Source: a virus
Direction: 5' to 3' (one strand)
DNA length: 64,000 bases
Virus record (IMG/VR): IMGVR_UViG_3300045988_111426
Part shown: positions 5,769 to 58,828 of the stretch, piece after piece
Position numbering within the stretch: the first letter of the stretch is position 1
Layout of the letters: every line of letters starts with the position of its first letter
The notes under the pieces: model-generated
Seen by the model: only the letters and a program-made list of their open reading frames with translations
Told to the model about the DNA's origin: nothing
Databases searched by the model: none
Program-made: the position numbers and the translations under genes

Positions 5769-5844
5769 GGTACTTTCCTTGCACTCTGATACACTTTCCG
5801 CTATTTCTACCCCACTGAATATCTTCGAGGACAAGGAAGATACC
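5769..5844 (+). promoter_or_regulatory. cassette E1: IR-wrapped bipartite promoter-like element
   Basis: GGTACTTTCCTTGC (TTG 5779-5781), N20, TATTTCTA (5802-5809), N22, CAAGGAAGATACC (5832-5844). Confidence 0.55.
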
Positions 5845-6019
5845 AAGAAGACAATCGAAGATAATCAGTCATAGTCTTCCAATAGTCCTTTGATGATTGC
5901 CTTTGTCTTTCAATGATTGTCCATAATCAGTCATAGTCTTCCAATGATCCTTTGACAATCATTCATTATTGTCATTGTCTATTCATAGTCTTTCAAGAGT
6001 ACTCTTCTGATTACAGAAA

Positions 6020-6094
6020 GGCACTTTCCTTGCATTCTGACCCATTTGACGCTATTTTCACCCCACTTGATCAGTTTGAATCAAAGAAAGACAT
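6020..6094 (+). promoter_or_regulatory. cassette E2 (right arm degenerate)
   Basis: GGCACTTTCCTTGC (TTG 6030-6032), N20, TATTTTCA (6053-6060). Right arm decayed to TCAAAGAAAGACAT. Confidence 0.5.
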
Positions 6095-6230
6095 AAAGAA
6101 GACAATCGTCGATAATCAATAGTCTTTCGATAATCAGCCTTTGTCTTTAATTGTCTTTCATAGTCTTTGATGATGATCATTGTCTCCCGACGAGAGTCCA
6201 TAATCCCCAAGAATATGTCTTCTGATTACA

Positions 6231-6314
6231 GGAAGGTACTTTCCTTGCACTCTGACCCATTTTCCGCTATTTTCATATTCTTGAATCACTTCGAGGACAA
6301 GGAAAGTACCTTCC
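6231..6314 (+). promoter_or_regulatory. cassette E3 (perfect 17-bp inverted repeat)
   Basis: GGAAGGTACTTTCCTTG (6231-6247), N20, TATTTTCA (6268-6275), N22, CAAGGAAAGTACCTTCC (6298-6314). Confidence 0.6.
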
Positions 6315-6481
6315 TTTAAAGCATATCAATTGGATAACACGTCTTCGGATAATGATGAATAGTGAACGATTGTTTCTCATCTATCCATTTTTGTTGATCT
6401 TCCGATAAAAACAACCATTTCTCACCCATTATAAGACGTATGAAGTAGATTTGTTGATGTCATAAGAATACAAAGAAGACA

Positions 6482-7039
6482 ATGAAGTCATTAGAACAGT
6501 TTCGCAATATGGTCTTGAATCACGATATCTTCATATTGATCGAAGGTAGACAAGCATTGATCAAAAATGTCGATCTTGATTTATACTCTCGACGTGGTGA
6601 TTTAGTGGTTTCGTATCAAGACATAATAATCAACGACGAAGGTATAAAGACAGAGAACCACGAGGAAACTGTTCTATTCATTCGTGATGGTCTCTTTTGT
6701 GAAGACTACTACATCGTGGAATCCGATCCAGTGTTCTATAAGCAGTTTTCTATAAAGACACGCAACAAGATGAAGATTCTCGATATGCGAGATATTGCCG
6801 TTGTTCACGATCTCTCTTCAAAATCTCCAGAGGAAATAATGAACGTTTATAAGATGATTCGTGAAGAGATTCTTCTTTACACGTTCTTCAATCCTTCTAT
6901 CTTCCATAAAAATCCTTACCCATCTTTAGAATATAAGATGCCAAATGAAAAGATTATCGAAAAGTCAGATGAATCATTGAGAAATCTGGATGGTCTGATC
7001 GATTCTGCAAGATCAATTCATTGGTTCTTAAGTTTCTAA
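6482..7039 (+). CDS. hypothetical protein (first gene of the plus-strand early-looking operon)
   Basis: 185-aa ORF downstream of three tandem promoter-like cassettes. No motif recognised. Confidence 0.55.
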   Translation: MKSLEQFRNMVLNHDIFILIEGRQALIKNVDLDLYSRRGDLVVSYQDIIINDEGIKTENHEETVLFIRDGLFCEDYYIVESDPVFYKQFSIKTRNKMKILDMRDIAVVHDLSSKSPEEIMNVYKMIREEILLYTFFNPSIFHKNPYPSLEYKMPNEKIIEKSDESLRNLDGLIDSARSIHWFLSF

Positions 7040-7055
7040 CAGAGAGGAAAAAGTC

Positions 7056-7586
7056 ATGAAGAAGATAGCTTTCGTTGGTAAATCTGCAGTTGGTAAGAAT
7101 CACTTCTTAAACATCTTTACCGCTCTTGGATACAAACCAGCAATAGGTCATACTACAAGAGCACCAAGAGAGGGGGAACAAGAAGGTAAAGATTATCACT
7201 TTGTCTCTAAGGAAGAGTTTGCGGAGATGATCTTGAAGGACGAGTTCATCCAGTTCATGCAGTTCCAAGGAGAATATTACGGAACTACTTTCACAGAATT
7301 CAGAAATTGTGACTTCTTCATCACTTCACCAACTGGTCTTGAGTACATTCCCGACAATCTTCGCTCAAATATAACAATAGCTGAACTCATCTGTGAAAAG
7401 ACAGTCACAATCCTCAGAAGACAGATTCGTGATGCATCCCAAGATACCACTTCGAGAGATGAGAATGACGACAAGCTCTTTGAAAACTTTGATCAGAAAA
7501 TGAAAGATCTCGGTTATAATCACGTGAAGATCGACACTGCAACAGCAATCGAAAAGTTCTACGCTCACAGCTTTGATGTATGCTAA
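7056..7586 (+). CDS. guanylate kinase-like nucleoside monophosphate kinase
   Basis: P-loop GKSAVGKNH, GHTTRAPREGEQEGKDYHFVSKEEF and FMQFQGEYYGTT match the guanylate kinase signature (shTTRxpRxgExdGxdYhFvs...YGT). Confidence 0.75.
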   Translation: MKKIAFVGKSAVGKNHFLNIFTALGYKPAIGHTTRAPREGEQEGKDYHFVSKEEFAEMILKDEFIQFMQFQGEYYGTTFTEFRNCDFFITSPTGLEYIPDNLRSNITIAELICEKTVTILRRQIRDASQDTTSRDENDDKLFENFDQKMKDLGYNHVKIDTATAIEKFYAHSFDVC

Positions 7587-8284
7587 TACTTGATAACAGT
7601 AAAGACTACTACGACTACATCCAAGGCGTTTATGGCGTGGATAGAAAGATTGTGTTTGATAGGCATGCTTTCAACTTACAGCACGAAGATGTTCGTTTTT
7701 CTTGTCACGACAATCTTGCTTACTTTCTTGTAGAAGTTGCAACAACGTGGTATATGCTCAGAGTTGATGTTGATCCCGAGAGAGATTCTTTAAGGGGGGA
7801 GCACCCTTTCCAAAGATTGAGTTTTTATCACAAAGACATACGTTCTCTTTCTCTCATCTGTACAAAGGAAATCGATGAAAAGGAGAAACTTTCCGATAGT
7901 GTTTCGTTCTTACTCAACATTGACAACGCCCATACCGTTTTCTCGATGTTCATGTCTTATATGATCACCCACGGTAGAAAATACGGCTTTGGGGATGAGC
8001 GTATAGACTACGACGACATGTTCAGATCTCTGTTCGAAATGTCAGCGTCTGAGATAGTACCGAAGGTGGCCAGATTTGGATTTGAAAGCTACTTCCACTG
8101 TAAAAATCCACTCTTGAAGTGCATCAACTTCGGTGGGATTGTTCCTCCAGAGGAGATGTTCATCAAGATCCAAAACTTCCTCTCGGCACAAATCAAAGAT
8201 GGTGTCGAAGTGAAGATGACAGATGAACAGAAGATTGTCGGGTATGGATTCGACAAGAAGACATCTTTCAGGAAGAGAAAATAA
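7580..8284 (+). CDS. hypothetical protein
   Basis: 234-aa ORF overlapping the previous stop by 7 nt. Followed by hairpin 8314..8351. No motif recognised. Confidence 0.55.
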   Translation: MLILDNSKDYYDYIQGVYGVDRKIVFDRHAFNLQHEDVRFSCHDNLAYFLVEVATTWYMLRVDVDPERDSLRGEHPFQRLSFYHKDIRSLSLICTKEIDEKEKLSDSVSFLLNIDNAHTVFSMFMSYMITHGRKYGFGDERIDYDDMFRSLFEMSASEIVPKVARFGFESYFHCKNPLLKCINFGGIVPPEEMFIKIQNFLSAQIKDGVEVKMTDEQKIVGYGFDKKTSFRKRK

Positions 8285-8313
8285 GGATTCTATTCATACT
8301 TTCCATAGACAGC

Positions 8314-8351
8314 GAGAGGACTGTGGTCAATTTCGAGATCACAGCCCTCTC
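8314..8351. terminator. hairpin between convergent genes (likely bidirectional terminator)
   Basis: GAGAGGACTGTGGTC / GATCACAGCCCTCTC (15 bp, 2 mismatches) followed by CAATTTTT. Confidence 0.6.
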
Positions 8352-8373
8352 CAATTTTTCAAGAGTGAAAGTT

Positions 8374-11300
8374 TTAGTCTTCTTGATACTTCATCTTTAT
8401 CGTTATGTCAAATGAGAAGATGTCATCGATGAACTTTTGTATGAGGTCAAAGCCGATAACTTTCTCATAGACCACGTTCTTGACACCATCTTCACCATTT
8501 ACACGCCCTTCACCTTGAGATCCATCACCATAATAGTCCGTCATTCTACATTCGAAGATGATCGGTATTCTGATTTCTGAATTGTTGATGATTAACCCTT
8601 TGTTGTAGATGTTCGTGTTGGTGCTTATCGCTTTCGGATTCTGAGGTGAAAGATAAACATAAGCACCACAGGTGTCTTTCCCGACGAGATATCTGTCATC
8701 GTGGTGGAAACCAATCTTGGAAGATTCACCGATTATCGATTTCACCGAGTTCGACTTGAAAGATGCACTCTGAACACTCTTCGCAATGATGTCTTTGATC
8801 GTGGATTTGTGTTCACTTTCCACACCACTTATGTTCTTGAAGAGTGGGTGATCTTTATGGAAGCAGAAATCTGTGAGATAGCCGTTTCCATCCACGAGTT
8901 TTCCATCAACAATCTTTGCGATGAACTGAGTCTCTGGTTTCCCTGTGGTTGCGTAATCTCCAAAGTTCAGCTCTTTTCTTTCTTCATTAAGCTTCTTTTC
9001 TGATGCATTCATCCCAGTCGTCGATTTCTTCCATTTTTCTACGATGCTGTCTTGAAGTGCAAGATCACGTGATCTCTGATAAACGAACTGTCCCTTCATC
9101 TGTGGAGATCCAAATGGAAGTCGATGTTCACCTTCACCATCGGTTTTAAAGCCGATGCAAGGGAAGTCATAGCGACGATAGCCGTAAGTCTTCTCATCGT
9201 GAACGTATCCACTCATGTCCTCGGTGACTGGTGTGTTAAAACCTGGGACATAAGACAAGAGTTCGGCATCTATCGACTTTGGATTTCTTATGCTCAAGTA
9301 GTATGTCTTCTGAATAATCGATCCCTTTGAGTTCGATTCAGTTTCATTCTTGTAATAACCAGCGAAGATCTTCACATGGTCATTGTTCTCAATGTTCATG
9401 ATCTTTTCCTCATTGCTATCAAGAATGGATATTTGAAGAGGAGAGTTCTTGATCCCATATCTTGATTCGATAGAGTCAATCGTTCTCTTCATCTCATCAA
9501 GAACCTGCATCACAGATTTCTGTTTGTTTTCACCATCAGTGAAGTAGTCCGTCGATATGTTACGTGAAGAATGGTGGAACATCTTCTCTCCCGATGTGTG
9601 GGAATCTGAAAGGTGATCATAAACACCAATTGATGTGAGTTCCTTCTCTATCATCGTGAGCATGTTGTCATCACCAATCCCTTCGAAAATCTTGGAAGAT
9701 GTGTCGACGAGATGCTGTGGGAATTCAACAATGACAGGTGATGACCATTCCGACATGTTGATAACTGTAGGATAGCCAGCTTCAGAGATCGAACGTACTC
9801 GGATTTCTACGTACTCATTTTTGGATATTGGAATGTCTACTTGATTTGGATTAATGCTATCAGCATCGAGTTCGTTCTCAGATTTCCATTCATACGCCCC
9901 AGTTGCAAGATTGTAGATTTTCTCTCTCTGATTCATTGGGAGCGTATTCCAATTCGAGTAGTACGCTTTGAGTTTCTCACCACTTGGGAGAATGTAGTCG
10001 ATCGTTTCTACGTTTGATTCTGTATTATCAGTTCGAAGATATCGATACTGACATTCAAACTTGATAATGTCGTAAGACACACCGTTATAAACCGTAGGTT
10101 CTGGTATAGCAAAAAACCCTCTGATTCTGTACTTTGGCTTGAATTCCTCAGAATCCCGAGTATACGTAAGGATGTCATTAACCAGAGAATAGAAAGTACT
10201 TACGAGGTTCTTTCTTTGCTTGTAATTCTCATCTATCGACTTCTGAAGTTTCTCACGTAGATTTTTATCGACAGTAGAACCCATCTCGTCTTTGAGTTTC
10301 ACTATCGATTTGTCGATGATTTCGATTTGGCTCTTTACGTTTTCCTTCTCGGCATATTTCTCTCTTACCTTCGTCTCGAACTGGTTTATTCTATGTGAAT
10401 TGATCAGCTTCACTTGCAGGTTTTTGGCTTCAAGGGAGGGGGTGTTCGGCTTCACATAAACATCCTTCTTCGCCGAAGAACCTCGGAGATTGTTGATTTT
10501 CTCTTCGACTTGAACGTCGGGTTTCACATAGACATTACAAGATCCCCATTCATCTGAAGCTATCCACTTCTGATTTATCGGTTTGATGAAGAGAATGAAT
10601 GGTTCTGATGAATGAAGCTCTACTGGGACAATTGTTCCAAACTCGTCTTCAATATCGATCTTGATCGTATCACCAATGGATACTTGTTCAAGACCATAAA
10701 CCGTGTTAAATCGGACATAACCAGTGGACTTGTCAATTTCCGAAACTGACCAAAGAGTGTTCTTACCAACAGTAAACTTTGATCCAACGGAAACTGATCT
10801 CGTAATTGTCACATCACCATCGATCGATTCTGTATACGAGAGATTCTGTCCAGATCCATTATCAAGAAGATAACCATCCTCGGAAATGTCCGATATCTTG
10901 AAATCTCGGGTGATGTTTCGTGATCTTGGTTTGACACAAACGATCGATTCTTGTTCTTTATATTTCTTCGCCGTAGAATGAAGATGTTTGAGGATATTCT
11001 CGTATTTCGTACCTGCAGAGAAATCATAACCATCGACGAAAAGCTTCTTTATCTGTACATGGGTGAAATCGTACTTATACTCTTCGACCTGCTTCGAAAT
11101 GTCAATATCAATAAACGTTGATTTTTCACCTTTGAGGTTTTCACGTGTGTATAATGACTTCGAAATGATGTCGTCCGTGATCGTTATCTCATTTGGTGTA
11201 AATCTCTTGATGTTTATAAGTTGTCTTCGAACGCCATCTTGTGTAACAACGTACGCCTGCATCTCACCATCTGCCACTATGTTCCTTATGTTCTTGTCGA

Positions 11301-11568: not shown

Positions 11569-11985
11569 ATGATACATTATAACAGTAAGTTAATACGATT
11601 TCTCCTGCCCAAGGGTTATAGTGCTATGATGTTGTTTGGTCATGTGTTTATCAGATCAACGAAGAATGATGCCGATAGCGTCATCGTGAACCACGAACTA
11701 ATACACGTAGAACAATGGAAAGAACTAACGTTTGCAGTATTCGCAATTCTTAATGTTCCTTTCATAGGTAGCATCAATATCAAGTACACGATCCTCACGA
11801 TGCTTCTTGCGTTCTGTGCGTTCTATGTGTGGTATTTCTTGGAATATCTCATCAGACTTGCGATAAAGAAGAACCACGACGAAGCTTACATGAACATATC
11901 CTTTGAAAAGGAAGCTTATCTGAATGAGGGGAAACCGAGATACTTAGAAAACCGAGACTACTTCTCATTTATCAAGTATCTCTAA
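11569..11985 (+). CDS. membrane protein with HExxH (HELIHVEQ) metallopeptidase-like motif
   Basis: 138 aa. NHELIHVEQW is followed by hydrophobic helices (FAVFAILNVPFIG, ILTMLLAFCAFYVWYFLEYLI). It has its own TATATAAAC box (11542..11550) and terminator (12018..12052). Confidence 0.4.
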   Translation: MIHYNSKLIRFLLPKGYSAMMLFGHVFIRSTKNDADSVIVNHELIHVEQWKELTFAVFAILNVPFIGSINIKYTILTMLLAFCAFYVWYFLEYLIRLAIKKNHDEAYMNISFEKEAYLNEGKPRYLENRDYFSFIKYL

Positions 11986-12085: not shown

Positions 12086-12160
12086 GGTACTTTCCTTGCA
12101 CTCTGACAGATTCTCTCGTGTTTTCATATTCTTGAATAGTTTCGAATGCAAGGGAAGTGT
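12086..12160 (+). promoter_or_regulatory. cassette E4a
   Basis: TTG 12096-12098, N20, TGTTTTCA 12119-12126, then GCAAGGGAAGTG. Shares the left flank TACTCTTCTGATTAAAGAGA with E1. Confidence 0.55.
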
Positions 12161-12184
12161 GTTCGAAAGCTTAAATCAAAGAGA

Positions 12185-12258
12185 GGTACTTTCCTTGCGC
12201 TCGAAGATGTTCCATCGTGTTTTCATAATCTTGAAAGAAAAGAGCGCAAGGGAAATAC
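12185..12258 (+). promoter_or_regulatory. cassette E4b
   Basis: TTG 12195-12197, N20, TGTTTTCA 12218-12225, then GAGCGCAAGGGAAATAC. The arms extend to GCGCTC/GAGCGC. Confidence 0.55.
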
Positions 12259-12341
12259 ACTCGAGAGCCTTGTATGAGTAGTTTTTGTTACTAGTCCACA
12301 CAAGGCTCTCTCTTTATATTGATGTTAAAAATCGTGGGTCT

Positions 12342-13937
12342 TTATATTCCGAGTTTTGCTTTTGTTCTTTCGATCACAGCGTTGAATCTCTTCACGTCTT
12401 GGGATGCGACATTTACAAGATAAGGCAAGGTGTCAGACTTGTTTTCATAATCCCCATCATCGACCACGTTCTTGATATACTTCTTGTAGTCCGATGTTGA
12501 TCGATAACCGTCGATCTTGTAGGCAATGTTCACCAGAGAGTTGTAGAATGAATCGACAAGCTTTCTATCATCTTTGATAACGTTTATTATGGAGAAAGCA
12601 TCACTAATGTTTGCGACATCTTCGGCTTCATTTACCTTGAAGATTTTCTTGAGGACATCTCTTGATCCGTTTGTGATATCATATCTCTTACGTTCTCCAC
12701 AACTTTCCACGATGAGGGTCTTTGTTTTATGATTTCGGAAACCAGTGACCACAGGTCGGATCTTCATTCCTTCGTGTTCAAACACTCTCCCTTCATTGAC
12801 CTGTATCTCGTTGCGATCATCATCAAGGAAGACCTGATCGATTTCTCCTATGTTCTCCTCGATTTCGTTAATGATGTTATCTACGATTTCCTTAGACTTG
12901 TCATCATCGCTCTTCTTCTGGATGTACTCACGCTTCCCAAGCAGAATGTAGTAGATTTCCATGATTCTCTCGTTCTCACGGATATCTTCTGGGAGACTTT
13001 CGATTTTTTCAATCTGTTCATTCAGAACTGAGATTTCCTTCTGAAGATCCGCATCGACATCTTCTACAATGTCTTCGACATCATCATCTTCTCCGTCTTC
13101 GTCCTTATTCATCTGTCTACCTGCTGGTTTATCATCTTCACCACTTGCTCTGCCTTCAAGTGCTTCCATGACGGAAACTGGGGATTGAAGAAGAGGTGTG
13201 ATATCAACACCATAGTACTCAAAGATCGTGTCGATAACATCTTGAGTTACTCTAAAAGTGTTCTCTGTTCCTGCGACATAGTCAATAACAATTGCATAGT
13301 CACCCGAATCAGAGTTCATAATACAAATCCACGTGTCACTTTCATCGGTGGCAGTCATTATAACATAACCGATGTAATCTCTGAATGAGAGATCTTCATA
13401 GACCTTCGCATCAACAGTTGGTGGGATTGAATCAACAGAGTAAATCGGTTCTACTAAAGTCACTCTATCGAGAGTGTTGAGAACATCAGTAGCAATTTTG
13501 TCTCCATAGTACTCTTTGAGAAGTCTCAGAAGTCGTAAAGACGTTCCATCACCATATAGTACGTCATTTCTGAAATCTTCTGTAAGGATTCCGTTCTCGT
13601 CGATTATTGTCAGATATTCGATAGAAGGCACGCTATACGATCTGAACAATTCAAGGACATGTTGGAAGTCGTATTCTGTTTCAAGATTGTCACCGAGTTC
13701 AATCACTCTATCACAGAGTTCTCTCGCTTTATCGACGTTTTTCTCATCTTCGGATTCCAGTTTTTTGTCGACAATATCTACAACATGTTCGAGGTCTTCA
13801 TAGTTGTATGCAATCTGTTCAATGGTGTCACCACTTTCGAAGAGGAAATATTCATCATCTTCAAAGATTCTCACTGGTTTAGATTTGTGTTCGAGGATTC
13901 GCTTTCCTTGTTTGTATGATTTGTTCCAATTGTTCAT
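12342..13937 (-). CDS. acidic late protein, function unknown (scaffold or internal protein possible)
   Basis: 531 aa, with long D/E tracts (GEDDKPAGRQMNKDEDGEDDDVEDIVEDVDAD) and coiled-coil-like segments. Late-type box at 13949..13964. Confidence 0.55.
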   Translation of the reverse strand: MNNWNKSYKQGKRILEHKSKPVRIFEDDEYFLFESGDTIEQIAYNYEDLEHVVDIVDKKLESEDEKNVDKARELCDRVIELGDNLETEYDFQHVLELFRSYSVPSIEYLTIIDENGILTEDFRNDVLYGDGTSLRLLRLLKEYYGDKIATDVLNTLDRVTLVEPIYSVDSIPPTVDAKVYEDLSFRDYIGYVIMTATDESDTWICIMNSDSGDYAIVIDYVAGTENTFRVTQDVIDTIFEYYGVDITPLLQSPVSVMEALEGRASGEDDKPAGRQMNKDEDGEDDDVEDIVEDVDADLQKEISVLNEQIEKIESLPEDIRENERIMEIYYILLGKREYIQKKSDDDKSKEIVDNIINEIEENIGEIDQVFLDDDRNEIQVNEGRVFEHEGMKIRPVVTGFRNHKTKTLIVESCGERKRYDITNGSRDVLKKIFKVNEAEDVANISDAFSIINVIKDDRKLVDSFYNSLVNIAYKIDGYRSTSDYKKYIKNVVDDGDYENKSDTLPYLVNVASQDVKRFNAVIERTKAKLGI

Positions 13938-20411: not shown

Positions 20412-20672
20412 TCAATCGTTTACAACATTGTCATTGTTTATTTCCATGTTCCTCACAACAGTGTCCATCGCCACTGTCGAATCTGTATTCTGAACGTATA
20501 TCGTATCAACCAGAGTTATCGTGTCTTGTCCGCTTCTACTATCGTAAAAAGTTATGGATTTGGAAGATAAGAATGACATCACTGAAACTATCATAAACGT
20601 TATAAAGCAACTACACATGACGAACATTGTTGCATTGATAACTATCTGTCTAAACCAACGATTCCCTATCAT
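20412..20672 (-). CDS. small membrane protein (hypothetical)
   Basis: 86-aa ORF with a hydrophobic helix (MFVMCSCFITFMIVSVMSFL). It ends 25 nt before hairpin 20348..20387, between the tape-measure and sheath genes. Confidence 0.4.
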   Translation of the reverse strand: MIGNRWFRQIVINATMFVMCSCFITFMIVSVMSFLSSKSITFYDSRSGQDTITLVDTIYVQNTDSTVAMDTVVRNMEINNDNVVND

Positions 20673-20718: not shown

Positions 20719-20793
20719 GGTACTTTCCTTGCACTCGAAGACATCTTCTGTTGTTTTCATACCTTTGAGCATCTTCGACTGCAAGGAAAGTAC
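20719..20793 (+). promoter_or_regulatory. cassette E5
   Basis: TTG 20729-20731, N20, TGTTTTCA 20752-20759, N21, GCAAGGAAAGTAC. The arms extend through CTCGAAG/CTTCGA. Confidence 0.55.
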
Positions 20794-20816
20794 TCTTCTT
20801 GTATCAAGAGGGCACT

Positions 20817-23800
20817 TTAGCCAATCTTGCCATTCACTCTCACCTTAGCATTACCATCCATAAACAGATCCTTAAGGTCAGAAAGTATCGATGCGACTGC
20901 GTTCTGTTGGACAGCACCATCCGAGTTTCTATAACCAAGAGCATCAAGGATCATACCCATCGACTGGATGATCTTATCAATCTGTCGAGTTCGGAGCTGT
21001 TCTGGAGTTTCCCCTGCTTTTCTATCGACCTTCATTGTTTCCTTGTTCGATTTCTCGATCTTGAAACCAGTGGATGATTGGTAACTTGCGAAAGATCCTC
21101 CCGAAGGCTTTGAAAGTGAAGGGAATGAGTATGCGGATCTCGATCTGTTCTGTTCGAACGAGTTCGCCTTGTCAATCACAGATTCTATCGACTTCCAATC
21201 TGCAGAGACATCCTTCATATCTTTACCGAACTTCGTGAGTATCTTCGTGAACTCAGAGAATGGCTTGATGAACTTCGAGAATGTGTCAACTTTGTGGGGC
21301 GTGAGGAACGAGAATCCTTCGTTGATCATCTGTAGTGTCTTCTTGAGTGTAGCACCCATTCTGAGTGACGAGATATCGGCATCTTTAATCGATGAGTAGT
21401 TTTTAATCGTGTTTACAAGCATATTCAACGGTTCATTGAACATCTTCACTGCATCAACACCCTTTTGAAGATCACTATCTGCTATCCCAAAGATTCCAGT
21501 TCCCTTATCGGCATCTTCTGCAAGAGACATGAACACTTGAGGTATCGTGGTAAGTATCCCTTCGATATTCTTCTGTATTGCCGTCCTCTCTTCATCCGAG
21601 ATCTTCGTTGTCTTCCACTTCACGACACCATCATAAAGAGGGATGAGTGCTTCGCCTATCCCCTTGACGTAGTCGATCCCTCTCTGGACTGTGGTCTTAA
21701 GGATCATCCCCATGAAACCAGTAGGAATCACATCCTTGTCCTGCTCACCGAATTGTGAGACAAGAGCAGGAAGAACACCCATGATTGTTTGGAGATTTGA
21801 AGTTATTCTTTCAACATCTGCCGACGTGAGTTTTGCGTCTCTCCATTTTCGGACACCATCTGCGAGACTGTTTATTGCATTGCCGAGGTCGCCTGTATAT
21901 TCAAGTCCTCGTTCAACTGATGACTTTTGGAACAATCCAAGGAAACCTGCGTTTATAACCTCATCCTTGTCAATCGCACCGAAGTCCGCAATCTTTCGGG
22001 GGAGAACACCAAGGATTGTTCTTATGTTCGTGTCGATCTGTTCCACATCAGAAGAAGAGAGCTTCATCTCTGCCCATTTCTTCACACCATCTGCAAGATC
22101 TCCAAGAGAATCCCCGAGTTTGGCGGTAAATCTTAGACCATTACGAACTTCACGAAGTGAGAAAGTCTGGCCATTGAGATATTCGAACTTTCTCTTCTCT
22201 TCTACATCTTTCTCTGACTTTCTGAGAATCCCCCAAAGATTCCACATGTCGTCGTCATCATCAAAAAATCTCCCCATTGGAGCGATCGATGCAGGGATGA
22301 TCCCAAGAATCGACTTGATATTATCCGCAATCTTCTGCCCATCCCCCTCGTCGATCTTCATCTCTGTCCACTTTCGGACACCATCTGCAAGATCGATCAT
22401 TGCCGAAGACATTCTACTTGCAGAGGTGATCGAACCTTGGATCTTGAACCAGTTCGTGTCGATGTCGTACATCTTCTTGATTGCATCGGGAGAAGTTGCA
22501 ATGATCACCGAGTGCATGATGTTCTTGAACATCTCCCCAATGTTGCGAGAAATGTCGATGAGCTTCGAAGTGTCTCCAAGCGAGGAGAACTTGACCATTG
22601 ATGTGGAGAATGTGTCGACGATACTTGCAACATCTCTCAAAGATCCAAGTCGGAAAGTGTCAAGGAAAGAAAGTTCAGAAAGTGCGTCGGAAGCTCCCTT
22701 CGCAAGAATCGTCATCGACTTTGAGAAGTTGGAGACATCATCGACTTGAACTTTGGATTTGCTTATACCTTCGAAGACCTTCGTAAATGGAAGAAGTGAT
22801 GCACCAACTGCACCAAGAGCGACAGATCCAAGAAGAATAAGAGGTGAAGCAATTCCGAACATGCTCATAGGAACAACAAGTTCCTTGATAAACTCTGGGA
22901 GGTGCTTTATCAGTGCATCACCGCTCTTTTCCATTGCTTCTCCGACCATCTTCAACGGAAGGGCAAAGGTGAGCAATGAAAGTCCAACGAGTGCCATAGC
23001 ACCTGCACCAAGAGCGATATAACCGAAGAACATACCTGCAACACCCCAAATTGTGGCAAGACCAGACGCAAGTCCCATGAAGATCAGTGCACCCTTCCAA
23101 CTCTTCATTGCAACCATAGATGAGAAAGCAATCGATGCACTGACAAGATAAACTGACAAGGACATCAGTGACATTGCAAGAGCACCTTTCGATATTGTCA
23201 CCCAAGATTTACCGATGAAGTGATAAACGACGGCAAGTGCCGAAAGTGATAAGGCAAGAATACCAACATTTACAAAGTCAATCCCTACCTGTGACACACC
23301 ATAAAGAGAAAGTGCACCAAGGACAAGGGAAGCGGACATGAAAGCGATTGCCTTTGCGCCAGAGACTATTCGTCTCGAGTTTCGAGAATTACCAAAGTAC
23401 ATGAACAATCTCGACATTCCGTACATTGTAGCACTGGTGATTGCCAGACCCCATACGAGCTGTCGAACATCGATCTGTCGCATTATGAGCGTCGTAAGTG
23501 CCATTGAACCTGCAAATGCGAGAACGGAAAGTCCCATCTTTGCAATCCCGACTGCACCTCGATTTAGTCCTTCTGCATTGTTCGCTATGAATTGTAGCTC
23601 TTTCCTCAAGAACTTGACGACAAACTTAAAGATCGTCATACCTGGTACAGCAAGAACAAGAAGCGGTGATGCAATGAAGATTCTCCACGCAAACTTACGG
23701 ATCCCAGTACCAATGCTCGAGAGCATGTCCCCAGTTGCCTTCATTTTCGAAGCATCACCATTCTTCATCACCTCCGAGAAGCTCTTGACAAATTCTCCAA

Positions 23801-29680: not shown

Positions 29681-29713
29681 CTTCACATAATAACTATAAC
29701 AAAGATCGTGCCA
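29681..29713 (-). promoter_or_regulatory. conserved TGGCA/TGTTATAGT promoter-like block A
   Basis: Minus-strand read: TGGCACGATCTTTGTTATAGTTATTATGTGAAG. Aligns over ~35 nt with blocks B and C. Confidence 0.55.
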
Positions 29714-29722: not shown

Positions 29723-29900
29723 AGACATGACAGATTTGTCAGTTGTCATATATTCTGTCATGTCTTCTTTAACACTTTGTAACATCTTGTATTACCTCGT
29801 GTCATATACCATAACATTTTTTAACATCTCATGGCACAAATGTCATATGGCACATGTCATATTCTGTCATGTCATAGTTGTCATGTGTTATGTTTGTCAT
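29723..29900 (+). repeat. TGTCAT array A (9 same-strand copies)
   Basis: TGTCAT starts at 29744, 29756, 29800, 29841, 29855, 29865, 29870, 29879 and 29895. A proximal half-palindrome GACATGACAG lies at 29724-29733. Confidence 0.8.
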
Positions 29901-29923
29901 ATCTCGTGTTATATGAAAACAAA

Positions 29924-29957
29924 AGCCCACCTCGGCATATGAGCGTCGAGGTGGGCT
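29924..29957. terminator. bidirectional terminator
   Basis: AAAAGCCCACCTCG...CGAGGTGGGCTTTT: an 11-bp GC-rich stem flanked by A4 and T4. Confidence 0.75.
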
Positions 29958-29981
29958 TTTGTTTTCATCTTCCTTCAGTTG

Positions 29982-30473
29982 TTATTCGAGATCGACAGCT
30001 TCGATTATCAACATCTCGTTGAGTTCACTTCTGCTTAGTGCGATTCCCTTGAGGTTGTTACTTGCTTCAAGGTAGATGCTGACTTCTTCATTTTCTGGCC
30101 AATATGACACGGAATAGTCAACAAAAGAGCCGTCAGCATAGGTCTCATTGATGACAGCAGAGTATTCTCTGACGTTGTTGAAGGATGGAGTGGTTTTCAC
30201 GAGTTCCACAAGCATCCCCTGCACAAGGTCGACGAGGTATTTGTGTGCTTCCTGCCAGTTGCTTACACCCTCAACATAGTGACCTTCGATATTCTCGAGG
30301 TACTCGTTTAAGGATTTCGGATTCTCGATTTCAAGGCGAGCTTCTGCCATATCGTAGTCACCGTAGAAGGTGTCCGATACTGCCTTGTCGTAGTCGTACT
30401 TGATGTTGTGATTAGCTGGTGTAACGCCTTCTTGTGAATTGAAGTAGTACGTGTTGTGACCTGTCATTTCCAT
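29982..30473 (-). CDS. hypothetical acidic protein
   Basis: 163-aa ORF with its own TGTCAT-array/TGGCA promoter block upstream and a bidirectional terminator (29924..29957) downstream. Confidence 0.55.
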   Translation of the reverse strand: MEMTGHNTYYFNSQEGVTPANHNIKYDYDKAVSDTFYGDYDMAEARLEIENPKSLNEYLENIEGHYVEGVSNWQEAHKYLVDLVQGMLVELVKTTPSFNNVREYSAVINETYADGSFVDYSVSYWPENEEVSIYLEASNNLKGIALSRSELNEMLIIEAVDLE

Positions 30474-30535
30474 GAGTTCTGTTCTTTTGCTTTTACCTTT
30501 CGGTGGTGGATGATGATAACTGATTGATCAGAAGA

Positions 30536-30568
30536 TCTTTCACGATAATTATAACAAAGATTATGCCA
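30536..30568 (-). promoter_or_regulatory. conserved TGGCA/TGTTATAAT promoter-like block B
   Basis: Minus-strand read: TGGCATAATCTTTGTTATAATTATCGTGAAAGATC. It contains TGnTATAAT. Confidence 0.55.
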
Positions 30569-30577
30569 AGTTATCTT

Positions 30578-30641
30578 TGTCATGACAAGGTTGTTATATG
30601 CGCTGTCATACGTGTCATACTCATTCTGTCATCTTTGTCAT
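30578..30641 (+). repeat. TGTCAT array B (5 copies)
   Basis: TGTCAT starts at 30578 (within the palindrome TGTCATGACA), 30604, 30613, 30627 and 30636. Confidence 0.8.
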
Positions 30642-30654
30642 ATACTGATTTACA

Positions 30655-30724
30655 GGAAGGTACTTTCCTTGGCTTCTCTTCCTTTTTCTAATATGAAAAC
30701 AGCGAGAGGTATCTCCGAGTTCAA
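30655..30724 (-). promoter_or_regulatory. cassette E6 (minus orientation; upstream arm replaced by terminator hairpin)
   Basis: Minus-strand read: TTG (30724-30722), N20, TGTTTTCA (30701-30694), N21, CCAAGGAAAGTACCTTCC (30672-30655). Confidence 0.5.
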
Positions 30725-30738
30725 CGAAGATACCTCTC
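30704..30738 (-). terminator. terminator after 30773..31555
   Basis: GAGAGGTATCT / AGATACCTCTC 11-bp stem. Confidence 0.55.
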
Positions 30739-42043: not shown

Positions 42044-42652
42044 ATGAAGTACGATATGATGAAGATAATCAGTGCTGTCGAGAAAGTAGGTGGTGAAATC
42101 GATAGAACACCCGTCTTTCTCAACATTGTCGGCATCCGTGATTTATCGAATCCAAACACATGGAACGATACCTGTGTTTATTTCAGATTTAACGAGAAGG
42201 GTGAAATAGAAATCCGTGAGATTCTCGAGTTCACGACAGACCCAGGTATTGACAATCTCCAAAAGCCACTTAACCCACAAGGATGCGCTATTCTTAAGCG
42301 TGGATATCATAAAGACCTATGGCAGATCGGTCTGCACCAAGGGAAATATGAAGCACTCAGACAGGTATCTCCCACTCACGTCCATAGAGATAACAACAAA
42401 GATTCCAAGCATGATCTCGTAGGGGATGACTTTGGGGTGTTTGGTATAAACTTCCATCGAGCATCCTCTCAGAAGCTTGTACCAGTTGTTGGTCTCTATT
42501 CTGCAGGTTGTCAAGTGGTGAGAAACATTAACGATTTCTCCAAGTTCATGCAGTGGGCAAATCAAGCCAAGAAAGCAGGACAGAAGGCATTCTCCTACAC
42601 GCTTCTGACCGTGGAAGATCTGAACTCTATGGAAGATATCAAACCAGAATAA
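42044..42652 (+). CDS. putative peptidoglycan-active enzyme (YkuD/L,D-peptidase-like catalytic motif); candidate endolysin
   Basis: FGINFHRASSQKLVPVVGLYSAGCQVVRNINDF resembles the H-x(~17)-S-x-G-C-(I/V)-R motif of the YkuD fold. An upstream TTDPG block is present. It is an isolated plus-strand gene with a TATATAAAC box (42004..42012) and a strong terminator (42678..42716). Confidence 0.4.
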   Translation: MKYDMMKIISAVEKVGGEIDRTPVFLNIVGIRDLSNPNTWNDTCVYFRFNEKGEIEIREILEFTTDPGIDNLQKPLNPQGCAILKRGYHKDLWQIGLHQGKYEALRQVSPTHVHRDNNKDSKHDLVGDDFGVFGINFHRASSQKLVPVVGLYSAGCQVVRNINDFSKFMQWANQAKKAGQKAFSYTLLTVEDLNSMEDIKPE

Positions 42653-42741: not shown

Positions 42742-42816
42742 GGTACTTTCCTTGCACTCTCTTTTTCCTTGAATACTTTCACACCCAAGAACTTCATAGA
42801 GCGCAAGGAAAGTACC
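42742..42816 (+). promoter_or_regulatory. cassette E7
   Basis: TTG 42752-42754, N19, TACTTTCA 42774-42781, N21, GCAAGGAAAGTACC 42803-42816. Perfect 14-bp arms. Confidence 0.5.
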
Positions 42817-42928: not shown

Positions 42929-43495
42929 CTATTCCTTAGGATTTATAACTTCTTCGTCTTCTGTCTTTTCATCTACCACAACTGACATCTTCTCTATGAA
43001 TTCGAGAGCTATCAATTCTGCAACTTGCCAATCAGTCTTCCAAGGATGCTTTACAAATCCAGTAAAGAAGACATAAACGTAGTCATCTTTATCTGACGGT
43101 TTTACTTTTTCGACATAGTTCTTCAAGATAAAAGACGCAAGTTCACGACATTTGTCCTCTTCCACAAACTCTTGTATCTCCTTGAAGAAGTCAAGATGGA
43201 ACATAACGTCTTCGGGTTCGAGTTCTTTATCACGTGAATAGAAAACCACAGATTTCCGTGTTTCTCTGTACAACTCAAACACGTATCTTTCTTCAATATC
43301 TCCGTTTATGAGTGTGGATTTATCAATTTGTCGGTAATACTTGTTAATGTATGAGCAGATGATATCAACACCTCTATCTGAGGGGTTAAACTTCGCCATT
43401 AAGAAATCTTCAAGTCTCACACCTTTGCTTTGTATGATAGAGTTGCAACTTTTAACAACTCTATCCACGAATTTTTCTACCTTGTTCATAAGCAA
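42929..43495 (-). CDS. hypothetical small acidic protein
   Basis: 188-aa ORF. No motif recognised. Confidence 0.5.
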   Translation of the reverse strand: MLMNKVEKFVDRVVKSCNSIIQSKGVRLEDFLMAKFNPSDRGVDIICSYINKYYRQIDKSTLINGDIEERYVFELYRETRKSVVFYSRDKELEPEDVMFHLDFFKEIQEFVEEDKCRELASFILKNYVEKVKPSDKDDYVYVFFTGFVKHPWKTDWQVAELIALEFIEKMSVVVDEKTEDEEVINPKE

Positions 43496-46812: not shown

Positions 46813-47697
46813 TTACAGTCTTTCGTAATTCTCACAAATAGACCCCCAAACCTTGTAGCGAGAGCCGTCAATGCCTTCGACTATCATAACTGGGGATGTT
46901 GAATAGACAAGATTTCGAAAATCTTCGATCTTCACAACTGATCGAAGATTCTCGAGTGATTCGTTTATGCTTTTTATGCTAAACTCTTTCTCTGATGAAT
47001 AAGTGTCCTTGAAAATTGAGCAAACTTCGCCATCTGGGTTTTCACAAACGTCTCTGAGTATTATCTCACGAGAGTTTCTTGGAGGTTCTGATCCATAAAG
47101 CGTTCTATAAATGTGATCGGCTTCATCTTTGGTGAGAGATTTTGCCCAATAGATGATTTCTTCTCTTGAGAGCGTTCCATTTTCATAGATCGATCTTTTA
47201 TATGATGCAAATGCAGCTTCATTGATCGATTTGTTATAAACACCGACTTCTTGAAGAACATCAATAATCACCGATGCAACAAAACCTGGGTTTTCGTATT
47301 CTACTTCAAGAAGATCTTGATAACTTACAGTTCCAAAGGTCGAGAACAGTGCTTCTGATATCTTCGTAAGGATGTGTTCATCGATGATGTAATAATTAAT
47401 CGATGAAATCTCAATAGGTTGAAGCACGGAATCCGTGAGAGCGAGGAATTCATCTTCAGTGATGATATCGGCTTCTTCAATATCTCCCACAACGCTGTCG
47501 AGAAGAGTGATGTCCTTTTCAGATAAATGGCTAATGTAGCTTGGATTTTCTGAGAGAAGATTAGACATGAAAGCCATCTTCTCATATTCTCCAGTTGTAA
47601 AGTGAGATGCGTATTCATCAATGCGACGACGAATACGTTCAGAATCTATGTTCTCGAAAATCGATCTTAATCTCTCAGATTTCTCGACCTTGTTCAT
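46813..47697 (-). CDS. late protein, function unknown
   Basis: 294-aa ORF. Late-type box at 47709..47726 upstream and terminator 46743..46776 downstream. Confidence 0.55.
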   Translation of the reverse strand: MNKVEKSERLRSIFENIDSERIRRRIDEYASHFTTGEYEKMAFMSNLLSENPSYISHLSEKDITLLDSVVGDIEEADIITEDEFLALTDSVLQPIEISSINYYIIDEHILTKISEALFSTFGTVSYQDLLEVEYENPGFVASVIIDVLQEVGVYNKSINEAAFASYKRSIYENGTLSREEIIYWAKSLTKDEADHIYRTLYGSEPPRNSREIILRDVCENPDGEVCSIFKDTYSSEKEFSIKSINESLENLRSVVKIEDFRNLVYSTSPVMIVEGIDGSRYKVWGSICENYERL

Positions 47698-47726: not shown

Positions 47727-47731
47727 AAATA

Positions 47732-47805
47732 TGTCTTCCTTGCGCTCGAAGATATCTGAAGGTAGTTTTACCCCATCGAAACGATCTGAATACAAGGAAA
47801 GTACC
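47732..47805 (+). promoter_or_regulatory. cassette E8
   Basis: Degenerate left arm GTCTTCCTTGC (TTG 47740-47742), N20, TAGTTTTA 47763-47770, N22, CAAGGAAAGTACC 47793-47805. Confidence 0.5.
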
Positions 47806-47817
47806 TCTCTTTAAACA

Positions 47818-47853
47818 GAAAGAGGGTGACATCTTTCAATATCACCCTCTTTC
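47818..47853 (-). terminator. terminator after 47859..48020
   Basis: GAAAGAGGGTGA / TCACCCTCTTTC 12-bp stem. Confidence 0.6.
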
Positions 47854-47858
47854 TTTTG

Positions 47859-56637: not shown

Positions 56638-56647
56638 ATTTCGGACA

Positions 56648-56665
56648 AAGTTTCGTTATTTACAA
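56648..56665 (-). promoter_or_regulatory. late-type box (TTGTAAATAACGAAACTT)
   Basis: 10 nt upstream of ATG 56637. Confidence 0.55.
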
Positions 56666-56672
56666 ATATGTC

Positions 56673-56708
56673 GAGAGAGCCGATAGAAAAAGATCTGTCG
56701 GCTCTCTC
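56673..56708 (-). terminator. terminator after ligA
   Basis: GAGAGAGCCGA / TCGGCTCTCTC 11-bp stem. Confidence 0.6.
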
Positions 56709-56730
56709 ATTAATGTTCTGGGGAGGATGA

Positions 56731-58692
56731 TTAGAAGAGTGCTTTTGAAGGATCTATCAACGACTTTTGCTGTTCCTCAATGATCGTCTCCATTCCCAAC
56801 AGTTCTCTAAACTCTGATTCGCTATAAATCCTAATCCCTGCACTCATCGCCTTTTGTTCCTTCGATGATCCACTTCCCTTCTCCTTAATGACAAGATCAG
56901 TAACTACCTTCGTGTATGTTGCAGACACTTTCCCACCATTTTTAACAATAGTGTCTTCCATCGCCTTGTTTCTGAAACCAGTGAAACAGAAAACTCTCCC
57001 TTGATAAATGTCGGATTCTGTGGTTTCTACCTTTGTCTTGAAAGTGAGTACCGAGGACAAGGACTTATAGAAATCGATAAACTTCTTATAGTTTTCCACA
57101 AAGATACCTGCTTGGATATCCCCGAATCCGTTGATTTTGAGAATGTCTGTGGATGAGGGGTAGAAATCTTCTAAGTTTTCCCACGTGAGAGAATACTCAT
57201 CGACGATCCATTGAAGTTTGACTGATCCAAGACTTTGGAACATGTTTGATGCGTGCATAAGACGAGAAATGGTGATGTCGGATATACACTTTTCAAGCGA
57301 ACGGACAATGTTGGAAGAACGCTTGTCTCCAAACTCTGAGAACACACTCGCACGATCTCTGATGACTCTTACTATTTCGTCAGTGTATAAAGAATTCTTG
57401 TCGAAGATCTTCTCATATGTCACATCTGACATTCCTTCAACACCGAGCACTTTGAAGAAGAATATGAACTCTTGTAGATTTCTACCAGAGCATCTCTCAT
57501 TTGGACAATAGACATCAACGAGAGAATCATCAAGAACAATAGGAGATGAACAGTAGGGACATTCTCGGAAGAGATGACCTTCTGTGACCATTTCTCCATA
57601 AGACTTCCATCTTTCTTTCTTTGGAATAGAGTGAATTCTTGGAATCACCTTTCCAGATCTCTTGATGATAATCTCTTCACCGCATCTTAGTCCATTGTCA
57701 CGGACATAACTCGCATTGTCGACGTAGATGTTGTTGCCACACATAGCACCATCAATGAGGACTTTATCGGTGGTGATAGTTGGGTTGAAAGTCCCATCTT
57801 TCCCGATGAACCAATTCAAGGATCTAATAATCACTTTCTTTGTATCACCAAACGATCCCTTATAAGCAATAGCGAACTTTGGATTTCCGATAGAGTTGCG
57901 ACCAAGAGAATCTGCAACAGAGAGGTCATTGATATCAATCACAAGACCATCGATTTCAAACTCAAGGATAAACTCTTGATAAGTTGTTGATAGGAATTCT
58001 TCGGTTATGTCTTCAAAGTCGACAAGAATGTACCGAACAGGTATCTTGTTGAGAGTGTTCAACCTGTCGATCATCTCCTGCTTTGTCTTATAAGAACCAG
58101 CATAACTGGTGTACTTCATAAAGACAAAGTCTCGAAGCTCCTCCGAAGACCTTGATCGTGGATTGAGCTTTCCTGCGACCATGTTTCTCACATTCTTGTA
58201 TTCTGATGAGTACTTCTCTGAGAATACGCTCTGTGGGATGATAAGCTCACCGACTATTTCTTCATCATCTTTAAAAAGTGGTTCTATAAGTGAGAAATGG
58301 TGAGAAATAGAAAAGCTCATATTCTCACGACCTTTCACGAGTGCTGTCACACTTCCATCTTCTGATATTTTCACCCCACAAGACACACCATCATACTTTG
58401 GTGTGACGATGAACTTCTGAGACTGGAGGTTATTTTTAGAGACCCACTCACGGAATTCCTCGATTGTCTTGATTTTCTCGAGACCATACATCGGGATCGA
58501 GTTTTCTACACGAGCGTGAGAAACACGACCATCGAAAAGTCTCGTACACGTGACCAGAGAATAGTGATTATACGCCTTATCATAGTCTTCATCAGAGGCA
58601 GTTGGAAATCCAGAGCGATATTCATCGTTTCTCTCACGTAACCATTCTCTCAAAAGATCGAGGTCTAAGGAACAGATGTCGTCAATATTCAT
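56731..58692 (-). CDS. ligA: NAD-dependent DNA ligase
   Basis: Adenylation motif TPKYDGVS (KxDG), OB region, Cys4 zinc finger CPYCSSPIV...CPNERC, HhH region and C-terminal BRCT (GRVFCFTGF...). The 653-aa length is typical of LigA. Confidence 0.88.
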   Translation of the reverse strand: MNIDDICSLDLDLLREWLRERNDEYRSGFPTASDEDYDKAYNHYSLVTCTRLFDGRVSHARVENSIPMYGLEKIKTIEEFREWVSKNNLQSQKFIVTPKYDGVSCGVKISEDGSVTALVKGRENMSFSISHHFSLIEPLFKDDEEIVGELIIPQSVFSEKYSSEYKNVRNMVAGKLNPRSRSSEELRDFVFMKYTSYAGSYKTKQEMIDRLNTLNKIPVRYILVDFEDITEEFLSTTYQEFILEFEIDGLVIDINDLSVADSLGRNSIGNPKFAIAYKGSFGDTKKVIIRSLNWFIGKDGTFNPTITTDKVLIDGAMCGNNIYVDNASYVRDNGLRCGEEIIIKRSGKVIPRIHSIPKKERWKSYGEMVTEGHLFRECPYCSSPIVLDDSLVDVYCPNERCSGRNLQEFIFFFKVLGVEGMSDVTYEKIFDKNSLYTDEIVRVIRDRASVFSEFGDKRSSNIVRSLEKCISDITISRLMHASNMFQSLGSVKLQWIVDEYSLTWENLEDFYPSSTDILKINGFGDIQAGIFVENYKKFIDFYKSLSSVLTFKTKVETTESDIYQGRVFCFTGFRNKAMEDTIVKNGGKVSATYTKVVTDLVIKEKGSGSSKEQKAMSAGIRIYSESEFRELLGMETIIEEQQKSLIDPSKALF

Positions 58693-58762
58693 ATCTTAAG
58701 AGATCTTTTTTAGTGTTTTGTACGATTCTTATCATAAGAACATACTTTCCTTATCACAGAGA

Positions 58763-58828
58763 GGTACTTTCCTTGCGCTCTGATAGGTCTTGTGGGGTGA
58801 AAATAGCACAAATAAGCGATGACCTCAA
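58763..58828 (-). promoter_or_regulatory. cassette E9 (minus orientation; upstream arm replaced by terminator hairpin)
   Basis: Minus-strand read: TTG (58828-58826), N20, TATTTTCA (58805-58798), N21, GCAAGGAAAGTACC (58776-58763). It lies upstream of ligA. Confidence 0.5.

Follow-up and report, generated by a model that had tools for sequence, protein, structure and literature searches.

Three described systems resemble the repeated intergenic cassette found in the IMG/VR virus record IMGVR_UViG_3300045988_111426, of which a stretch of 64,000 nucleotides (nt; the window hereafter) was analyzed. Among the PeSL/PmSL cassettes of T4-type phages (Arbiol 2010; Comeau 2014, PMC4122927), a promoter-early stem-loop (PeSL) has its stem-loop ahead of a sigma70-type -35/-10 promoter; a Shine-Dalgarno sequence and the start codon of a gene in the same orientation come next. 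Mycobacteriophage repressors of the L5 type bind more than 20 asymmetric intergenic 13-mers, the stoperators, where they stop elongation and also block initiation (PMC9283540). REPINs are inverted extragenic doublets at a preferred distance, and the doublets are more conserved than the singlets, which decay (PMC3116915). The cassette considered here is specific to one phage clade and consists of two inverted copies of a sequence of ~13-18 nt, the arms, which enclose an interior of 50 nt (rarely 49) with a promoter-like box, TRTTTTCA. We rate it as belonging to none of PeSL, stoperator, and REPIN/BIME, and as akin to the dispersed intergenic palindromic or regulatory repeats of phages. Our preferred reading, to which we assign a probability of about 0.4, is that the arms may be paired recognition sites for a sequence-specific factor at the boundaries of transcription units, comparable to stoperators.

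The likeness to PeSL lies in short, conserved intergenic cassettes of a T4-like myovirus that combine a stem-loop with a promoter-like motif, occur in many copies, recombine, and may in part cluster in plastic regions; three of the copies in the window (E6, E8, and E9; Table 1) also show the order of a terminator followed by a promoter-like box. Here, however, the box lies within the inverted repeat, and what is invariant is the arms, not promoter hexamers. Moreover, about half of the copies face no gene, the phage has no Shine-Dalgarno sequences, many cassettes lie in the conserved structural core, and no gene swap of the PeSL type is seen at the arms. PeSL is the closest named family in T4-like phages; of its defining features, the cassette lacks a start codon that follows in the same orientation and, outside E6, E8, and E9, a stem-loop ahead of the promoter-like motif. 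With the stoperators of cluster A phages (L5 gp71 type) the cassette shares a near-invariant asymmetric 13-mer in more than 20 copies per genome, found in short intergenic spaces or promoter regions and at the ends of transcription units. Stoperators are single sites, oriented with transcription, in temperate phages with a known repressor (PMC9283540), whereas the arms mostly form inverted pairs 63 base pairs (bp) apart with no orientation rule, in a presumably lytic T4-like phage. Like REP, BIME, and REPIN sequences, the cassettes occur as hairpin-capable inverted doublets, as single copies and in tandem clusters, at 3' ends and between convergent genes. They differ in residing in a phage and not in a chromosome, in numbering tens and not hundreds, and in having a longer, 50-nt spacer with a conserved center. 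The cassette singlets (E8 and E9) are no less conserved than the doublets, and no Pfam or PHROG match to a RAYT (IS200/IS605-like) protein was obtained among the open reading frames (ORFs) of the window.

The 14-mer arm GCAAGGAAAGTACC has 15 matches in the window with up to two mismatches, against 0.24 expected, and none of 100 shuffles reached 15. All 13 arms with at most one mismatch fall in the non-coding 8.4% of the window. A TTG, the box, and the downstream arm stand at fixed spacing in all ten loci: TTG and box are separated by N20 everywhere except at E7 (N19), and the gap from box to downstream arm is N20-21 (nine loci measured by script, E9 read by hand). The box alone is not enriched in the window, with 22 matches against 16.1 expected at up to one mismatch. 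The arm has a core, GGTACTTTCCTTG, then two variable bases, then CTC. The palindrome continues weakly outward (TCTTCTGATTAAAGrrAG) as well as inward (the two variable bases and CTC/GAG), and arm and flank together make a partial dyad around GTAC (AAGGAArGTACyTTCCTT). Paired arms lie 63 bp apart, center to center, or about six helical turns. Exactly midway between them is a quasi-palindrome, TAT-NNNN-ATA, so that the "orientation" of a cassette is defined by only ~4 central bases and weak flanks, and is ambiguous for the divergent interiors of some site classes outside the window (classes a, c, and d).

Most of what a preliminary description of this DNA had said about the repeat holds: the ten-copy geometry, the location of copies at operon boundaries, the perfect 17-bp arms of E3, and the lack of a left arm at E9. 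It had also taken the left arm of E6 to be missing and its TTG to come from an unrelated hairpin, and both statements proved wrong. The sequence GGTATCTTCGTTG fits 10 of 13 arm positions and doubles as the left stem of the E6 terminator; because that stem is a degenerate arm, the TTG at N20 is a vestige of the arm and not an independent supply.

The window is part of a ~150-kb myovirus genome related to T4-like phages, from a clade that is known solely from metagenomes. In pattern scans of IMG/VR and metagenomes, the cassette turned up in fragments and in five or more related contigs of 145-152 kb; these contigs are collinear with the window at 88-92% DNA identity, are non-independent samples, and had their genes called as simple longest ORFs. 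The cassette occupies the same sites in at least five of these ~150-kb genomes, and a genome of the clade has about 20 copies. One contig, 118132, has roughly 17 cassettes in the ~69 kb examined, a stretch chosen because it contains cassettes. Altogether, 149 unique arm contexts carry ~1.6-2 bits per arm position, and 114 have a partner arm, with an interior of 50 nt in 98 and 49 nt in 13. Both arms stand at the fixed distance in 69 of 126 unique sites, and ~45% have only one good arm. In a more distant relative, L078 (tail sheath 53% identical in protein sequence), three cassettes have GGTACTTTCCTTG / CAAGGAAAGTACC or the recurrent variant GGTATCTTCCTTG, and one of them lies between the sheath and portal genes, where the window has none.

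The arms are the most conserved part of the cassette. In alignments of the orthologous E4, E7, E8, and E9 sites (5-7 genomes each), 78 of 84 arm columns (93%) are invariant, as against 107 of 243 interior columns (44%), 27 of 40 box columns (68%), and 377 of 721 columns of other intergenic DNA (52%). The single arm of E9 is invariant in 14 of 14 columns across seven genomes; the E8 orthologues keep one arm while its partner decays to GCAACGAATGCGCA; and a perfect arm is present in every copy seen of classes a and d. Conservation of the box is less regular, with 7 of 8 columns at E9, where it faces a gene, 7 of 8 at E4a, where it faces none, and 2 of 8 at E7.

The arms pair with one another as an inverted repeat should. 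Among 27 dereplicated cassettes, 84.7% of cells are paired in the palindromic register, vs. 35-50% in slid registers. Covariation is nevertheless no higher than in shuffles (190/500), and no arm pair shows a two-sided change. Positions of the arm that are not Watson-Crick paired number 59 and 55 on the two strands, so there is no G-U strand bias, and fold energies are equal for both strands; selection at the RNA level on one strand was rejected for these two reasons. The lack of covariation, the lack of G-U bias and the equal folding indicate that the palindrome is kept through the sequence of each arm, and not through compensatory pairing. The unit under selection, judged from these alignments, is the single arm, read as sequence and not as structure.

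At the E5 orthologous site of L079, the interior is inverted (identity 0.50 direct, 0.72 inverted) with the flanks and the flanking arm unchanged, and at the E8 site of L078 the intact arm and the orientation of the box are swapped; the stretches compared with window E5 and E8 were L079 9440-9620 and L078 6060-6260. Recombination or template switching between arms could have caused these inversions. An active invertible switch (inverton) was rejected, as no inversion occurs in 79 paired elements at orthologous sites of close relatives, and inversions are seen only between deeper lineages. A segment of 50 bp is also very short for recombinase-mediated inversion. Exchange of sequence between cassette copies is clear: L034 and L011 have an interior of the E3 type at E4a, and in L003 another interior has taken the place of that of class a. 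A protein-coding cassette was likewise considered, since ORFs cross cassettes (e.g., 12096-12281) and a mini-ORF, MK..SECKESTFL*, recurs; it was rejected because synonymous changes are lacking in the arms, variants of 49 nt disrupt the reading frame, and the DNA is a palindrome. The mini-ORF is present at E3, E4a, E4b, E5 (minus strand), and in classes c and d. Its start is an ATG within the box; it then reads across the arm (..CKEST..), ending in most cases at a TAA in the flank, and is longer at E5 and in class c. It is probably a by-product of conserved DNA.

The cassettes are located where transcription units border on one another or end. In the window, E4a, E4b, and E7 are situated between convergent genes and E6 and E9 after terminators, while E5 and E8 stand 5-20 nt upstream of late-type promoters in three lineages. 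Site classes of the family beyond the window start 5, 14-17, 18, and 25 nt after stop codons, most of them in convergent intergenic regions. With the T-rich strand of the box taken to set the orientation of a site, the most frequent arrangement (43 of 126 unique sequences) has a co-directional gene that ends 5-100 nt upstream and a convergent gene downstream; in 72 of the 126, an opposing gene lies downstream. In the orientation adopted by the preliminary description, a gene lies ahead of E3 (behind which stand E1 and E2), E6, and E9 alone; E4a, E4b, E5, E7, and E8 are directed toward a terminator or into the 3' end of a convergent gene. The single arms of E8 and E9 lie between genes that share a strand and point in opposite directions. 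In class d, terminator, TTG, N20, box, and arm follow in order, but the box is reversed (TATGAAAC). The cassettes are thus without an orientation rule.

Copies E4-E9 lie in collinear, conserved regions and show no presence/absence polymorphism among 5-7 close genomes. The remaining copies, E1-E3, belong to a 1.4-kb non-coding array (5055-6481) beside the DNA polymerase gene, where AAGACWAT iterons ~10-11 bp apart (by eye) separate them, and which also contains a (GACAAA)n microsatellite at ~5650-5690. Copy number in this array, and in a second array present in relatives, varies among the genomes, and larger arrays have their cassettes directed away from the center. The array may be a replication origin or a hyperplastic region.

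Outside the clade, single copies were found in three contigs of unrelated phages, L005 (54% G+C) and L014/L050 (46% G+C). They have the same arms and 50-nt spacing, with different interiors that lack the TRTTTTCA box, and their homology reaches ~20 nt into the flank, taking in even the stop codon upstream. This suggests that the cassette moved horizontally across phage lineages, possibly across host phyla. The L014 copy (7729-7804) is flanked by a DNA polymerase III alpha-like gene and, downstream, a gene with a strong Shine-Dalgarno sequence; the L005 copy (4443-4518) lies upstream of a 210-amino acid (aa) ORF followed by a 520-aa ORF, which may be terminase genes. A metagenome scan beyond the family added only the L014 contig. 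An origin in host chromosomes was rejected, with five chance-level matches, all without the GGTAC extension, in 185,579 bacterial and archaeal representative genomes. So was a known RNA family: no cassette matched a curated Rfam covariance model, and in Rfam 15 only a tRNA reached the gathering score, E-value scans giving generic miRNA-hairpin noise well below thresholds. The arm sequence was not found in the searchable literature.

How these observations may fit together is as follows. Selection on a single arm as sequence, and not as structure, suggests that the arms are protein binding sites on duplex DNA, the protein being encoded by the phage or possibly by the host. Likewise, an element that works singly or paired and in either orientation, only in intergenic DNA and at transcription-unit borders, points to a sequence-specific reader of duplex DNA. 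Since 63 bp corresponds to about six helical turns, two bound protomers would lie on the same face of the helix and could bridge a bendable, AT-rich center. Such a complex could serve as a boundary or a silencer, blocking read-through from either side and/or shutting the weak promoter-like center, in the manner of mycobacteriophage stoperators; the boundary would be bidirectional because the sites are paired in inverse orientation. The paired form, when transcribed, may also fold into a hairpin of at least 13 bp that would add termination or RNA-end protection, and ectopic recombination between copies would be a side effect. What the sequences show is the repeat, its geometry, selection on the arms, their location, and the lack of an orientation rule; the protein that would bind, its action as a roadblock or repressor, and a contribution of the hairpin are our inference, the function being proposed by analogy with stoperators.

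Several observations weigh against paired recognition sites. Among ~45 ORFs of the window, there is no Pfam or PHROG match to a DNA-binding protein (helix-turn-helix, repressor) or a transposase, and the 5-10 kb flanking the cassettes hold no protein common to the family and L005, L014, or L050, so a phage-encoded reader is not obviously co-inherited. Stoperators are locked in orientation to transcription, and these arms are not. The E4 site of L079 has an intact box but drifted arms (three mismatches), indicating that selection on the arm is not universal. The outer half of the putative dyad has 0.4-1.4 bits vs. ~2 bits for the arm. Finally, the center has its own 3-bp stem and tetraloop (77-93% paired), which, together with the 69 of 126 sites that are paired, also fits a fold-back structure. 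A stronger version of the proposal, which we consider doubtful, is a dedicated boundary system that would partition the ~150-kb genome and in which one factor would read ~30 invariant 13-mers, mostly in inverted pairs set exactly six helical turns apart about a bendable center, and insulate or silence in both directions in a T4-like clade probably infecting Bacteroidota, the cassette being occasionally transferred to unrelated phages.

The favored reading and its rivals are not fully exclusive. That the paired arms act by folding, as a hairpin of RNA or single-stranded DNA that would be a bidirectional terminator, a 3'-end protector or an RNase III-type processing site, seems to us unlikely. 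The in-register pairing agrees with it, as do predicted RNA energies of -14 to -47 kcal/mol for the 76-nt core (mean -28 to -29) and the fixed 50-nt interior with its conserved inner CTC/GAG and apical stem and tetraloop. Position agrees as well: classes a, b, and c, E5 and the L014 copy begin 5-25 nt past the stop codon of a gene that has no other terminator, placement between convergent genes is frequent, and a terminator scan flags a local hairpin of arm plus flank at E7. Structure alone, however, does not require arms that are invariant at the protein divergence of L078 and never change in compensation, nor the conservation of single arms at the ~45% of unique sites with one good arm, and the decayed partner arms lack a G-U bias on either strand. 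An intrinsic terminator in the strict sense was rejected, as the stem formed by the arms has 50 nt inside it and TYYCTTTAAT after it, with no T-run that would give a proper U-tract; canonical terminators already adjoin E4, E6, E7, E8, and E9. Less likely than the hairpin, in our estimate, is a host RNA polymerase promoter with TTG at -33, N19/20, and TRTTTTCA at -7, in which the downstream arm would be a leader or operator and the cassette a Bacteroidota version of PeSL. Bacteroidota sigma-A promoters have TTTG at -33, a spacer of 19-21 nt and TAnnTTTG at -7, and their genes lack Shine-Dalgarno sequences. The cassette, with its TTG, 19-20 nt, and a T-rich octamer beginning with TA, in a phage that has no Shine-Dalgarno sequences, resembles them, but the terminal TG is absent from the box and the orientation is not tied to genes. 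The preliminary description had named a promoter of this kind, firing early and with a conserved leader or operator, first among its candidate functions. The TTG and spacing recur in all ten loci, and the TTG is kept where the upstream arm decays (E8 orthologues) or a terminator replaces it (E9, class d). The box is better conserved than the rest of the interior, and the copies at E9, E6, and E3 either come after a terminator or point toward a gene. Apart from E9 and E3, no promoter is recognizable for the ligase gene and the 6482-8432 operon, respectively, and the E5 and E8 copies are sense-oriented in L078 and L079. As a general function, however, the promoter was not upheld. Half of the window copies (5/10) and most site classes would fire into a convergent 3' end or a terminator, about half of the site classes being convergent or just past stop codons, whereas the real promoter classes of the phage, described below, are sense in 12 of 12 and 3 of 3 cases. 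Lineages differ in the direction of the interior at one and the same site, and the class d box is reversed relative to terminator and arm. The box, not enriched on its own, is destroyed in E4b of two genomes (where it is swapped for TGATCGCA), poorly kept at E7, and absent from L014, L050, and L005. Only 3-5 of the 6 fixed -7 positions match (about four as a rule), never including the final G, and the far greater conservation of the arms is left unexplained. A subset of the cassettes may still have promoter activity.

A third view is that the cassette is a selfish or recombinogenic repeat, a REPIN/MITE-like mobile doublet or PeSL-like module kept by copying and gene conversion, and we regard this as improbable, the least likely of the three. 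Inverted extragenic doublets at a fixed distance, accompanied by singles resembling decayed doublets, are what has been described as REPINs (PMC3116915). The exchanges of interiors in L034, L011, and L003 are as expected of gene conversion, and array copy number varies; the single copies in unrelated phages of different G+C, homologous into ~20 nt of flank, and the new L078 site between the sheath and portal genes likewise speak for mobility. By contrast, E4-E9 are fixed among close genomes, the arms are invariant across deep divergence, and single arms are as conserved as paired ones, which is the reverse of the REPIN pattern. No transposase was recognized among the window ORFs, the sole gene-cassette indel in the window region involves ATGACA iterons and not arms, and the repeat is absent from the 185,579 representative genomes. 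The fallback suggestions of the preliminary description (an insulator hairpin, a recombination module, a resemblance to PeSL) fit the data better than its promoter did and have largely been adopted here.

Almost nothing is known about regulation in uncultivated phages of Bacteroidota-like hosts. If recognition by a factor at boundaries is correct, the cassette would be the equivalent of stoperators in a lytic myovirus, but symmetric and independent of orientation. If that factor is dedicated to it, a large lytic phage would have a novel means of delimiting its transcription units, and the 76-bp cassette would make a compact, portable insulator part. If it is instead selfish and REPIN-like, it would be a rare case of such repeats living in phage genomes and moving between phage lineages. 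Under either reading, this phage clade can easily be recognized in metagenomes by the arms. Their information content, 13-18 invariant bases at a fixed spacing of 50 nt down to 53% protein identity, goes far beyond what a promoter or terminator needs. The window also separates into three signal classes: late T4-type promoters, sigma54-like promoters with iterons, and the cassette.

The positions of the cassettes, the fit of their arms and boxes, and their surroundings are collected in Table 1. The relic listed last is a partial duplicate of the E6 region.

Table 1. Cassette copies and a relic in the window. Mismatches are counted against the arm and the box TRTTTTCA; "exact" denotes a box that matches fully.
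Element	Position	Strand	Upstream arm	Box	Downstream arm	Setting
E1	5769..5844	+	perfect	TATTTCTA (2 mismatches)	recurrent variant ACAAGGAAGATACC (3 mismatches)	first unit of non-coding array 5055-6481
E2	6020..6095	+	GGCACTTTCCTTGC (1 mismatch)	exact	decayed (6 mismatches)	
E3	6235..6310	+	complete pair, 17-bp perfect inverted repeat 6231 to 6314 (at most 1 mismatch)	TATTTTCA, exact	at most 1 mismatch	171 nt upstream of + strand operon 6482-8432
E4a	12086..12161	+	perfect	exact	4 mismatches	between convergent genes 11569-11985(+) and 12342-13937(-), directly past the terminator hairpin of the + gene
E4b	12185..12260	+	perfect	exact	3 mismatches	tandem copy, 99 bp from E4a
E5	20719..20794	+	complete pair (at most 1 mismatch)	exact	at most 1 mismatch	22 nt past stop of gene 20817-24659(-); ~20 nt upstream of late-type ACATAAAT promoter for 20412-20672(-)
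E6	30659..30734	-	degenerate	TGTTTTCA, exact; also U-tract of terminator 30738-30704	CCAAGGAAAGTACC on minus strand (at most 1 mismatch)	
E7	42742..42816	+	complete pair, 49-nt interior (at most 1 mismatch)	TACTTTCA (1 mismatch)	at most 1 mismatch	between convergent genes 42044-42652(+) and 42929-43495(-)
E8	47731..47805	+	decayed (5 mismatches), retains TTGCG	TAGTTTTA (2 mismatches)	kept (1 mismatch in window; invariant among relatives)	between bidirectional terminator (~47815-47855) and late promoter TTAAATAAG (47724) of gene 46813-47697(-)
E9	58763..58838	-	absent	TATTTTCA, exact	single arm 58763-76 (at most 1 mismatch)	downstream of terminator 58851-58819; 71 nt upstream of NAD-ligase gene 56731-58692(-)
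relic	29905..29945	-	no arm	TGTTTTCATA	no arm	after a terminator hairpin; ahead of second ATGACA-iteron block

The phage has promoter classes of its own. A late-type motif, TAAATAA[GC], which resembles the T4 late promoter TATAAATA, occurs on the minus strand and upstream of ORFs in 12 of 12 cases (11527, 13963, 16504, 20322, 24699, 39478, 41997, 46724, 47724, 52876, 56662, and 60729); sites that were read directly lie ~20-35 nt upstream of a minus-strand ATG. It is probably the late promoter class of the phage. The plus-strand genes 11569-11985 and 42044-42652 are real, having PHROG matches and each its own terminator, and bear TATATAAAC in place of this motif. A sigma54-like element, TGGCAYR-N4-TTGT, is sense in 3 of 3 cases, at 29713, 30568, and 62317 (minus) before three genes, with the -24/-12 elements TGGCACGATTTTTGT and TGGCATAATCTTTGT; the upstream regions are 29786-29981, 30474-30658, and 62240-62412. 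Each is preceded by 6-11 ATGACA iterons, which look like enhancer-binding sites. The relative L056 (IMGVR 3300006251_000001) lacks the 163-aa gene 29982-30473, which adjoins E6, together with its sigma54-like promoter. When window 29884-30625 is compared with L056 9399-9426, the junction falls inside the ATGACA iteron arrays, which indicates a gene-cassette indel mediated by ATGACA repeats. No canonical Bacteroidota promoter was found in the intergenic DNA of the window, where sigma70-type matches are at chance level. Outward promoters from the arms (arm at -33, TAnnYTTG 18-19 nt outside), seen at E1-E4a, were considered and rejected, as their orientation is inconsistent and the E9 instance is a duplicated arm fragment.

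Almost all genes of the window are on the minus strand. Those recognized include the portal (PHROG 213; Portal_T4 in relatives), a tail sheath of 1141 aa, and a baseplate-hub-like protein, as well as RtcB, a 5'-3' exonuclease, an NAD-dependent ligase, guanylate kinase, and one tRNA. A megablast search of 20 kb against INPHARED returned no deposited close relative, and the best portal matches, at 33% identity, are to Prevotella Lak phages and other T4-like phages. Shine-Dalgarno sequences are absent from the genes of the phage, and the numbering in two contig names (7000000286) suggests an origin in Human Microbiome Project samples; a host of the Bacteroidota type is therefore plausible. The family-B DNA polymerase beside the array is a 400-aa ORF, 3852-5054 (-), that aligns with profile positions 484-841 (of 856), in the C-terminal half; no N-terminal half lies next to it, which suggests that the polymerase gene is split, as in some T4-like phages. 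The ORF 32433-39455 (-), of 2340 aa, has CotH-kinase-like and Laminin_G_3 domains and a strong match to an uncharacterized PHROG; its product is predicted to be a giant virion or tail-associated protein.

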